From the IMG/VR virus record IMGVR_UViG_3300021142_000004: a stretch of 64,000 bases of DNA, one strand, 5' to 3'. The position numbers were made by a program, and so were the translations under genes. The notes below the pieces were generated by a model. The model saw nothing but the letters and a program-made list of their open reading frames with translations, made no database searches and was not told the origin of the DNA. The number at the start of each line of letters is the position of its first letter. The stretch's first letter is position 1. The DNA is from a virus. Below are positions 12,115 to 13,743 of the stretch, piece after piece.

Positions 12115-12779
12115 TTATCCAACGACATTTTTCATATCATCACTATGATGGTCAAATAAAAGATCAGATTTTATTTCTCTTTTATCCATTAAGGGAATAA
12201 TTTCTGTTTTTAAATTGTAAGGTCTGAATTCTGGATGACCATCCATACCAACATCCATTTTTTTACCTTTACCAAATTTCAAATGATTTGGTAAATGTAC
12301 ATGTCCATGAAGATGAATATGACCTTTATTTAAACCATCCCATGAACTAATTGGGTAATGCATAACTTTGAAGTTACGACCACAGTATTGAAAAACTTTA
12401 TAATGAGATGTTGAAAGAAATAAATCTCCACAATTTTCCCTATTATTTTCAATATGATGGTCATGATTACCATAAATCAAATGAATATTTTTACAATTTA
12501 ATCTCCTATGAAATTCAAAGATTTGTTCAATCCCACCAAATGACCAGTCTCCCAAACAGATTAAAATATCATCCTGACCTGCAACATTATTAATATTATT
12601 AACAATCGCATTATTCATTTCATCGAGATTTTGAAAATCCCTTGTTTGTTCTATTGGTATTTTTCCATCTTCAGTTCTCCAATTGGTTACACCACGACAT
12701 ATATTTTTATGTGAAAAGTGTGTTAAGTGTCCGAGGTAATCCAAACATTGGAATCCTCGGACAAAATAATTTTATTCAT
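12115..12779 (-). CDS. calcineurin-like metallophosphoesterase, interrupted by a 5-nt insertion inside the SDTH motif
   Basis: 12779-12723 encodes MNKIILSEDSNVWITSDT*. The other frame resumes HFSHKNI...LGDW...GNHD...HYP...HGHVH...DVGMD. Confidence 0.85.
12728..12763 (-). promoter_or_regulatory. GC-rich mRNA hairpin abutting a premature stop (candidate recoding signal)
   Basis: TGTCCGAGG...CCTCGGACA perfect 9-bp stem plus an inner TCCAA/TTGGA stem. Confidence 0.65.
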
Positions 12780-12817
12780 TAATTTAATTTTATTTATACA
12801 AATATAAGTTATTATTT

Positions 12818-13070
12818 TTAATTTTCAAAATAATTTTTTATATAATTTTTTTTGTCATACCTTTCACCATTTTGATATGAAATGATTAAACAAAGACATT
12901 TTTCTTGTTCATAATAATCAATATCCCATTTTTTTATTCTTTCAAATAAATCATTTAATATAATTATACTATCATTATTTTTTCTACTTTTTTTAATATT
13001 TTCACTATGAGTTATTAATTGACAATTAGTAGGGTGTCTTACAATTTCCGGAAACACTTTTTCTGAAAAT
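12818..13070 (-). pseudogene. N-terminally truncated HNH-like endonuclease remnant
   Basis: GFSEKVFPEIVRHPTNCQLITHSENIKK is the second half of an HNH-type motif. There is no ATG start. Confidence 0.6.
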
Positions 13071-13071
13071 C

Positions 13072-13743
13072 CTATTTTGTGTTATATAATTGTTCTTTTG
13101 GTTTCTTCACTTCCTCAATGATTTTACCCATTACATCGAAAGGTATTGGTAACAACATTGGTGAAGTTTCCTCATCATCAGCCAACCAAGCTTGGATATT
13201 TTTTGGATCATTAAATTCTCTAGACACAGCGAATTTATCATTTGTTTTCTTACTTAAAATGAAGAAAATTCTATGACTATCTTGATAACGTTTGTAATGT
13301 GATTCTTGTGTTACACACCATTTGGTATTTGCACCATATGATTTAGATGCTTCATAACTCAATGGTGTTAAAACTAACCAATCCTCAGTTTCATAAAGTT
13401 TTGCAACTTCTTTCTCAAGACGCTTCAATTTAACTGCTTCGTCAGCTTTCTTAACTGCGATATCCAAATCCTCAAAAGACTTGTATTGAGTGATATCAAG
13501 TTTTTCCAAACGTTTTGCTTTGGAATGTTCTTCAAACAAACTAAGACATTCGGATTCTTTTTTTGTTAAGAAGTGAGAAGCTAACTCTCTTTTAACTTCA
13601 TCAATATTGACTTCTTTTTTAATTGACTTAATAATGAAGTCGGTGTACTTGTAAGTACTTGTTGGGTCTAAACTGACAATGATGTCTAAAAAAGAGACAT
13701 TTAAATCTGGATGTTGTTTACGAAGTTCATCAATACGTGCCAT
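13072..13743 (-). CDS. conserved huge-phage hypothetical protein (YG..TKWC motif)
   Basis: PLSYEASKSYGANTKWCVT, with a TTTG...TATATTTG promoter upstream. Confidence 0.65.
   Translation of the reverse strand: MARIDELRKQHPDLNVSFLDIIVSLDPTSTYKYTDFIIKSIKKEVNIDEVKRELASHFLTKKESECLSLFEEHSKAKRLEKLDITQYKSFEDLDIAVKKADEAVKLKRLEKEVAKLYETEDWLVLTPLSYEASKSYGANTKWCVTQESHYKRYQDSHRIFFILSKKTNDKFAVSREFNDPKNIQAWLADDEETSPMLLPIPFDVMGKIIEEVKKPKEQLYNTK

Follow-up and report, generated by a model that had tools for sequence, protein, structure and literature searches.

How could an enzyme be made from a gene that carries a stop codon inside the codons of its DxH metal-binding motif? This question is raised by a 64,000-nucleotide stretch of viral DNA (IMG/VR record IMGVR_UViG_3300021142_000004; hereafter the window, meaning the whole stretch), where a phosphoesterase gene on the minus strand is interrupted by five bases directly before the His codon of that motif. 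An earlier note on this DNA had proposed that ribosomes hop over these bases. We suggest that a programmed 5-base hop, made by a threonyl peptidyl-transfer RNA (peptidyl-tRNA-Thr) in an element tied to a homing endonuclease, is probably how the gap is crossed. Diverged phages have the same hairpin, Thr codons, stop and gap, their stem covaries and their downstream frames are nearly all whole, which together argue for this reading.

The interrupted phosphoesterase gene

On the minus strand, an ATG at 12779-12777 opens an 18-codon mini open reading frame (mini-ORF; 12726..12779; MNKIILSEDSNVWITSDT), a putative substitute 5' exon that ends in ...TCG GAC ACT TAA. It encodes the hydrophobic strand and the S-D-T of motif I, matching the intact homologues, and its last codon is the candidate take-off Thr codon ACT (12728-12726). 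The five-base coding gap TAACA (12721..12725) comes next and has the same layout in the 74 five-base elements described below: the stop codon TAA (12725-12723) overlaps a second Thr triplet, ACA (12723-12721), on which the tRNA would land. The phosphoesterase frame of 201 residues follows (12115..12720), with CAC (12720-12718) as its first codon and its stop codon at 12117-12115. When TAACA was omitted, translation gave a 219-amino-acid protein with WITSDT|HFSHK and the spacing of the intact homologues, and the hop would yield the junction peptide ...NVWITSDTHFSHK. This confirms the earlier note, which had stated that removing five nucleotides restores WITSDTHFSH and a 219-residue enzyme, and whose statements on the sequence were all exact to the base.

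The mini-ORF contains an RNA hairpin (12728..12763, minus strand) with two arms of 9 bases, TGTCCGAGG at 12763-12755 and CCTCGGACA at 12736-12728, and an inner stem of 5 base pairs. Its 3' arm terminates on the first base of the take-off codon ACT, and its predicted fold has -21.1 kcal/mol (z = -4.4 against shuffled sequences). The guanine plus cytosine (GC) content of the window is 27.5%, and the codon usage bears out the remark that the stem is built from codons scarce in this AT-rich genome: TCC and TCG make up 3.0% and 3.4% of its Ser codons, ACC 8.3% of Thr, GAC 13.6% of Asp, and GAG 12.8% of Glu. The stem core GAGG:CCUC (window 12755-12759 and 12732-12736) resembles a Shine-Dalgarno:anti-Shine-Dalgarno duplex; this likeness may be incidental, since covarying stems without it also occur.

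The downstream frame encodes a calcineurin-like metallophosphoesterase. It matches the PHROG 547 phosphoesterase (4e-35), and the closest solved structure is 1xm7. The Pfam Metallophos_2 and Metallophos matches of the window protein were weak and below the cut-off, and an intact homologue (P0002) passes Pfam PF00149. The motifs GDWSFGG, GNHDHH, HYP and GHVH are all within the downstream frame, and DxH is present only after the hop. We found 5562 homologues of the phosphoesterase. By protein, the nearest cultured relative was Flavobacterium phage immuto, a 160-kb myophage with an intact gene (50% identity). A blastn search of the locus against cultured phages gave no match, and a 39-base piece of another element, L195, including its hairpin, gave chance matches only. 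Thus, no cultured carrier is known. The interrupted downstream frame extends upstream without a stop as far as 12771, and gene callers therefore place its start at the TTG at 12744 and now annotate such genes as truncated proteins beginning with MDYLGHLTH.... The window is DNA of a freshwater phage, with further genes for an ATPase, a tail fibre and an M23 peptidase.

The five-base gap is real DNA. Identical elements were found in three other assemblies (L273-L275; 97.8-99.3% identity), contigs of the public runs X1 (2016) and X2 (2018) bridge 12721-12725 without inserted or missing letters, and the same 209-amino-acid "truncated" protein is encoded on several contigs. The earlier note had advised verifying the five nucleotides in raw reads, and the contigs of both runs contain them. 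Frameshifts in metagenome contigs are often errors, and this prior is all that favours a sequencing or assembly artefact, which is excluded by an identical gap in three independent assemblies and in the 2016 and 2018 contigs, and homologous gaps in about 80 other elements. The differences of the window from L273-L275 cluster at 12470-12625 (downstream codons 32-84), including some multi-base codon changes, and this segment is a recombination patch from another allele. In a lake metatranscriptome (X20), the one RNA run that was found, only 12190-12340 and 12439-12472 of the window were covered, at ~94% identity, and the gap lies outside the covered part; the contig represents a relative of the 3' part of the phosphoesterase in an RNA library, which does not imply transcription.

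The element and its hairpin in diverged phages

Four pattern scans, covering IMG/VR, metagenome contigs and one genome per prokaryote species, retrieved at least about 80 distinct elements across several phosphoesterase subfamilies (e.g., HYxHKNICRG... and HFGHxNIxxYCxRPF...). This number and the counts on 79 elements given below are those among the matches listed, and the true number is at least as high. The elements share a common plan, with a Thr take-off codon, a stop codon next to it, a gap of 5, 6 or 9 bases and then a His codon, and in all of them a hairpin lies on the 5' side, with a 3' arm that reaches to the take-off codon. Relatives with a hairpin, an S-D-T followed by a stop, and a gap of variable length, in which the earlier note had seen a way to check the idea, therefore do occur. 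Besides, seven of the best 120 homologues, all diverged (59-70% identity), begin with xDYLG[HY]LTH, which corresponds to a -1-frame reading of the same interrupted site; their DNA layout is alike and the details differ. A protein-based viral scan had returned intact loci only (80 of 80), since its search words lay in the downstream part.

To leave the gap open, one scan fixed only the 3' arm and the codons of H-x-x-H. It returned intact genes and genes with gaps of 5, 6 and 9 bases, and every gap began with a stop codon. The 6-base gaps were TAG ACT, TAG ACC, TGA ACA and TGA ACT, the 9-base gap was TAG TAA ACA, and a Thr triplet stood directly before the His codon in all but two distinct elements. 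L115, L134, L142 and L128 are among the loci with these longer gaps. Among the intact genes, 13 loci (10 distinct) used ACC TCG GAY for T-S-D.

Base composition at the junction was constrained. The stop codon in the gap was TAA in 49 elements, TGA in 19 and TAG in 11 (n = 79), and it was never replaced by a sense codon. The landing triplet was ACN in 69 of the 79, as had been expected for the gap ending, and the remaining elements had GCN (8) or ATT (2), both of which could still pair with the Thr anticodon NGU via G.U. In the 74 five-base gaps, position 4 was C in 72 and T in 2, and position 5 was T in 61, A in 8, C in 3 and G in 2, position 4 being the more constrained (Fisher p 0.005). The take-off codon was ACT in 39 elements, ACC in 25, ACG in 14 and ACA in 1. 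Intact genes use Thr codons differently at this place (ACA in 14 of 37 and ACG in none, vs. ACA in 1 and ACG in 14 of the 79 elements), and tRNA identity is one possible reason for this bias.

Chance matches outside phosphoesterase genes, which had neither a hairpin nor an open reading frame, served as negative controls. The scan of one genome per prokaryote species gave 27 chance matches and one true element, L277, which lies on a contig binned with a Sediminibacterium metagenome-assembled genome and has the stem ATCGGAGGT/ACCTCCGAT. This element and the related Flavobacterium phage are a hint that the hosts may be Bacteroidota.

The hairpin is a constant part of the element. In every one of the 79 elements, ACN TCN GAY has a 9-base partner farther upstream, with 7-9 of the 9 positions paired across loops of 7-64 bases. 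On the 69 bases ending at the 3' arm, the median minimum free energy was -20.2 kcal/mol, vs. -7.6 in 59 intact genes (p 2e-23). The ten distinct intact genes with an identical 3' arm have no 5' pairing partner. A few intact genes (L032, L058 and L065) have a weaker, AU-rich hairpin of -9 to -10 kcal/mol within the last ~30 bases before the His codon, and they could be revertants without the gap, or precursors. Thus, the same hairpin in uninterrupted orthologues, which would have spoken against a dedicated role, was seen only in part: a much weaker one at the same place in some, and none in those sharing the arm.

We judged covariation at the three free third-codon positions of the 3' arm (n = 79). 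Stem pair 1 was GC in 62 elements, AT in 9 and GT in 3, with 5 mismatches. Pair 4 was CG in 71, GC in 4, TG in 3 and TA in 1, and pair 7 was GC in 63, CG in 8, TG in 3, TA in 2, AT in 2 and GT in 1, both without a mismatch. The stems contained 39 G.U pairs vs. 7 A.C, an excess that speaks for a structure formed by the sense-strand RNA and not by the DNA. In a gapless alignment of 28 short-loop elements, 99.1% of the cells were paired, and the covariation score was 0.214 vs. 0.104 in shuffles, none of 500 reaching as high; in slid registers of the stem alignment, pairing drops to 25-46%.

The mini-ORFs have 10-45 codons and vary in length and sequence, with only ...[VL][WFY][IF]TSDT in common, that is, the strand and ligand residues of motif I of the enzyme. 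The hairpin can span the whole mini-ORF, the shortest being MSEVFFTSDT, and in 38 of the 79 elements (e.g., L195, L212 and L168) the G that opens the stem is also the last base of an in-frame ATG, TTG or GTG. A stop codon of the endonuclease lies a few bases upstream of such mini-ORFs, an arrangement that suggests coupled translation or a start codon occluded by the hairpin. Downstream of the gap, no conserved structure was found, and the 50 bases on the 3' side fold at -4.9 kcal/mol, vs. -7.2 in intact genes.

The enzyme frame is maintained in nearly all of these phages. We surveyed 82 distinct hairpin-bearing elements, of which 12 run off the contig, and a complete downstream frame (at least 150 codons, with the GD, GNH and GH motifs) was present in 69 of the 70 determinable ones. 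That nearly all of them are whole speaks against a simple pseudogene. The sole frame with an early end (L182, 77 codons) is possibly a truly decayed copy. In the window and in L081, the enzyme frame is whole while the endonuclease gene has decayed.

A homing-endonuclease cassette and a proposed hop

Upstream of the mini-ORF, a decayed, putative homing-endonuclease gene (12818..13069, minus strand; phrog_23051 match) corresponds to the C-terminal quarter of a 311-amino-acid zinc-finger/NUMOD3/HNH protein. Its open reading frame, 13069-12818, matches residues 224-300 of one such protein, P0124 (64% identity, E 3e-30), in which an N-terminal zinc finger is combined with NUMOD3-like repeats and, at the C terminus, a DH...N...H motif. 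For a nuclease fold in P0124, the search gave a weak NUMOD3 match, and DH...N...H was spotted by eye. Since the window frame lacks the catalytic DH part, it is a truncated HNH gene, as had been recognised before. At 12975-13075, the X2 contig has 39 other letters for 99 bases of this remnant, which is a second decay form of the endonuclease in the population. Likewise, contigs with an identical P0016 enzyme have either the whole 311-amino-acid gene or only 37 codons of it.

Full-length copies of the P0124 type are found at the same position in L083, L201, L210, L095 and others. This type of HNH gene lies immediately upstream in 19 interrupted loci and in none of 80 intact loci. Counting any endonuclease-like neighbour, it is 39 of the 79 elements vs. 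3 of 80 intact loci, which supports the proposed link between the gap and a homing endonuclease. Other interrupted genes are preceded by LAGLIDADG, HNH or TnsA-like nucleases, with Pfam scores near or below the cut-offs.

Comparison with empty sites indicates what was inserted. In the syntenic loci L304 and L305, an intact 217-amino-acid gene abuts an upstream 230-amino-acid gene, and the blastn homology of the window to them ends at 13074 and restarts at 12722, so that the cassette remnant extends over 12723..13073 (minus strand). The interrupted locus L201, when set against L068, a close relative that is intact, still has the 17 codons with which the gene originally began (MIKIDKDRKVFVTSDTH) upstream of the HNH gene. 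Behind the HNH gene, a new ATG precedes the hairpin exon, and TAACT then leads into the host gene, which continues from CAC. Such a relic of the original 5' exon is kept in 7 of 60 loci (L201:5102-5153, L171, L187, L147, L221, L243 and L140), ~1.0 kb upstream of the element, and it ends directly after D-T-H each time. This end is constant with HNH and LAGLIDADG genes alike, which implies different endonuclease families with the same insertion point and the same hairpin exon. In the other 53 of the 60 loci, including the window, the upstream original exon is gone. The interrupted alleles are scattered among intact ones on a quick tree, with at least four gains or losses, which fits a mobile cassette. 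The earlier note had placed the HNH remnant beside the gene. The adjacency holds, but the element appears to be the 3' end of a homing-endonuclease cassette, whose insertion into the DNA for DxH also supplied a new 5' exon in place of the old one. It also seems likely, if less firmly so than the hop itself, that several endonuclease families carry this portable module, and that on bacterial ribosomes it allows an efficient 5-, 6- or 9-base hop without a nascent-peptide signal or a downstream structure.

We propose the following course of events. A free-standing homing-endonuclease cassette would invade the phosphoesterase gene at the DNA for S-D-T|H, its 3' end supplying a substitute start codon and 5' exon recoded into a GC-rich hairpin. 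With the stop codon and two more bases after this exon, the endonuclease target would not be rebuilt at the junction. The ribosome would then translate 18 codons and pause once UAA has entered the A site, while peptidyl-tRNA-Thr is still paired to ACU in the P site; this tRNA would unpair, the messenger RNA (mRNA) would slip forward by 5 bases, and after re-pairing with ACA, decoding would resume at CAC (His) to give the 219-amino-acid enzyme with its DxH motif intact. At take-off, the 3' arm of the hairpin would fill the three codons behind the P site, and its refolding at the mRNA exit could push the mRNA forward, much as an internal Shine-Dalgarno duplex would do if it lay too near the P site. 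In the window, the endonuclease gene would have decayed later, while the hop element and the enzyme frame were retained. Both the role of the hairpin in the hop and the protection of the junction from cleavage are parts of this scheme that we infer. The former is in line with reports that an upstream hairpin abutting the E site stimulates a +1 shift on 70S ribosomes when a stop codon is next to the P-site codon (PMC6321510, PMC3639245), and that pairing of the exiting mRNA, or refolding of a 5' stem-loop, was proposed to drive the forward bypass in gene 60 (10.1101/2024.12.09.627546). Synthetic stop-hops between matched codons are also known (PMC5009743).

Could the gap simply never be decoded? 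A selfish cassette might have killed a dispensable phosphoesterase, with the frames whole only because the insertions are young. The scattered alleles would agree with that, and so would the premature stop of L182 and the fact that the mini-ORF and the hairpin move with the cassette and not with the host gene. Against it, 69 of the 70 frames are whole even beside endonuclease fragments, as in the window and L081, and unused DNA has no cause to keep an in-frame stop in all 79 elements. A pseudogene would also leave unexplained the Thr-compatible triplet before His, the gap lengths that all restore D-T-H, the motif-I residues in the exon and the covarying stem with its many G.U and few A.C pairs. 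We consider this explanation rather unlikely.

Other ways of obtaining a product fit the relatives even less. A -1 (equal to +2) frameshift, readthrough of the stop or internal initiation would yield a variant or N-truncated enzyme; the frame open back to 12771 would permit this, and a 5-base gap arithmetically equals a -1 shift. The -1 product, however, reads L-G-H-L-T-H and loses the Asp of DxH, and a slippery heptamer is absent. In the relatives with 6 or 9 extra bases, both parts share one frame and are parted by one or two stops, which excludes frameshifting as the common mechanism, and readthrough of them would put extra residues inside DxH. For an internal start, the NTG is not conserved and is absent in the ...VFFTSDT class; initiation at the TTG at 12744 was rejected on that account. 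A +1 site of the RF2 type was rejected as well, since +5 is needed (+6 or +9 in the relatives) and the +1 frame fails to restore the protein. Decoding of these kinds is thus very unlikely. Phage homing endonucleases often reside in group I introns, and this habit raises the further idea that a degenerate intron or RNA editing takes out the five bases or the whole cassette; splicing from the relic 5' exon, in the 7 loci that keep it, would restore the gene. Neither the window nor the L201 cassette matched an Rfam intron or any other RNA family, the ~115 non-ORF bases that flank the endonuclease frame are too few for a ribozyme core, and 53 of the 60 loci, the window among them, have no upstream exon left. 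Moreover, we know of no mechanism for excising 5-9 bases, and removal at the RNA level is highly improbable.

Several observations weigh against the programmed hop itself. The landing triplet is not ACN in 10 of the 79 elements, and the nearest intact relatives of the window have CCA as the host codon at the landing position; part of the preference for C at gap position 4 and for a landing ACN could have been inherited from Thr or Pro codons of the host gene instead of being selected. The elements are not independent samples. Given the scattered phylogeny, many of them may be recent transfers, and their intact frames may partly reflect youth. Comparison of the window with its 99%-identical relatives gives no word on selection; the codons that differ, 6 synonymous and 6 non-synonymous, sit in the one recombination patch, which makes the ratio of non-synonymous to synonymous changes uninformative. 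Finally, the 3' arm would be inside the ribosome at take-off, which makes it doubtful how far the hairpin could refold after only 5 bases.

Comparison with known bypassing systems

The programmed hop proposed here most resembles the bypassing in T4 gene 60. In both cases a cassette lies in the region for an essential motif of a phage enzyme gene, the downstream part opens with a coding gap, the landing codon matches the take-off codon and a stop codon directly follows take-off. A 5' stem-loop has been implicated in forward movement in gene 60 too, and its gap is likewise thought to protect against the endonuclease. Reportedly (Huang 1988, Bonocora 2011), the gene 60 bypass lies within a MobA homing-endonuclease element. 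The differences are also clear. The gene 60 gap has 50 bases, vs. 5-9 here, and gene 60 uses a take-off stem-loop enclosing the stop, a Shine-Dalgarno-like gap sequence and a 3' structure, none of which is present here. It also depends on a nascent-peptide signal ~14-30 residues before take-off, which our elements lack; with mini-ORFs down to 10 codons, there is no room for one. Gene 60 encodes a topoisomerase and uses tRNA-Gly, whereas here the gene is a phosphoesterase and the tRNA would be tRNA-Thr, and the endonucleases belong to several families (HNH, LAGLIDADG and TnsA-like) instead of MobA HNH alone. Manning and Atkins described bypassing in gene 60 and in MobA homologues in topoisomerase genes (10.1101/2022.08.31.505936).

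The tRNA movement itself would be that of the synthetic stop-hops, the +5 and +6 hops of Escherichia coli reporters (Weiss et al. 1987, in PMC5009743). Our 6-base relatives (ACN-stop-ACN) have the very layout of a stop-hop, in which 9 bases are read as one residue. The synthetic hops were of low efficiency and in artificial constructs, whereas the elements described here are natural, conserved and equipped with a dedicated hairpin. According to a 2016 review, no natural in-frame stop-hop was known, and shorter natural counterparts had long been expected (PMC5009743).

Other systems share single features. In the +1 frameshift of RF2 (prfB) and in its hairpin mimic, forward movement is also promoted by a duplex just upstream of the P site while the A site holds a stop codon (PMC6321510, PMC3639245), but the shift is +1 and not +5, +6 or +9 to a barely overlapping or non-overlapping codon, and the duplex is intramolecular here. 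The terminase of Streptomyces phage Hau3, with a proposed 10-nucleotide bypass at UUA (PMC10732093), shares the short gap and a proposed 5' stem-loop; its trigger is a rare sense codon, its proposed role is regulatory, and it has no link to an endonuclease cassette. In the mitochondria of Magnusiomyces capitatus, the 'byp' inserts (PMC5009743) are also many and short, sometimes with an imperfect match of take-off and landing codons, but they are largely independent of context, with an unused sense codon in the A site and neither hairpin nor endonuclease. In the full-text literature, we found bypassing only in gene 60 and its MobA homologues, the Hau3 terminase, yeast mitochondria and synthetic constructs, and no case in a phosphoesterase.

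Bypassing in bacteria and phages has thus rested essentially on T4 gene 60 and its topoisomerase homologues, and here a simpler signal recurs in many uncultured phages and several enzyme subfamilies. If our reading is true, these would be the first natural stop-hops, and the ~80 wild variants would be a mutational series for the way in which a hairpin on the exit side of the ribosome makes the mRNA slip forward. Their natural variation in stem, loop, stop, gap length and landing codon bears on the minimum needed for a ribosome to hop, on whether a 5' hairpin can act as a Shine-Dalgarno duplex, on how strict re-pairing in the P site has to be, and on how selfish cassettes can enter the DNA coding for an active site without killing the host gene. 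The earlier note had gone further and spoken of an undescribed recoding class; the elements are better seen as a minimal variant of known translational bypassing and of the synthetic stop-hops.

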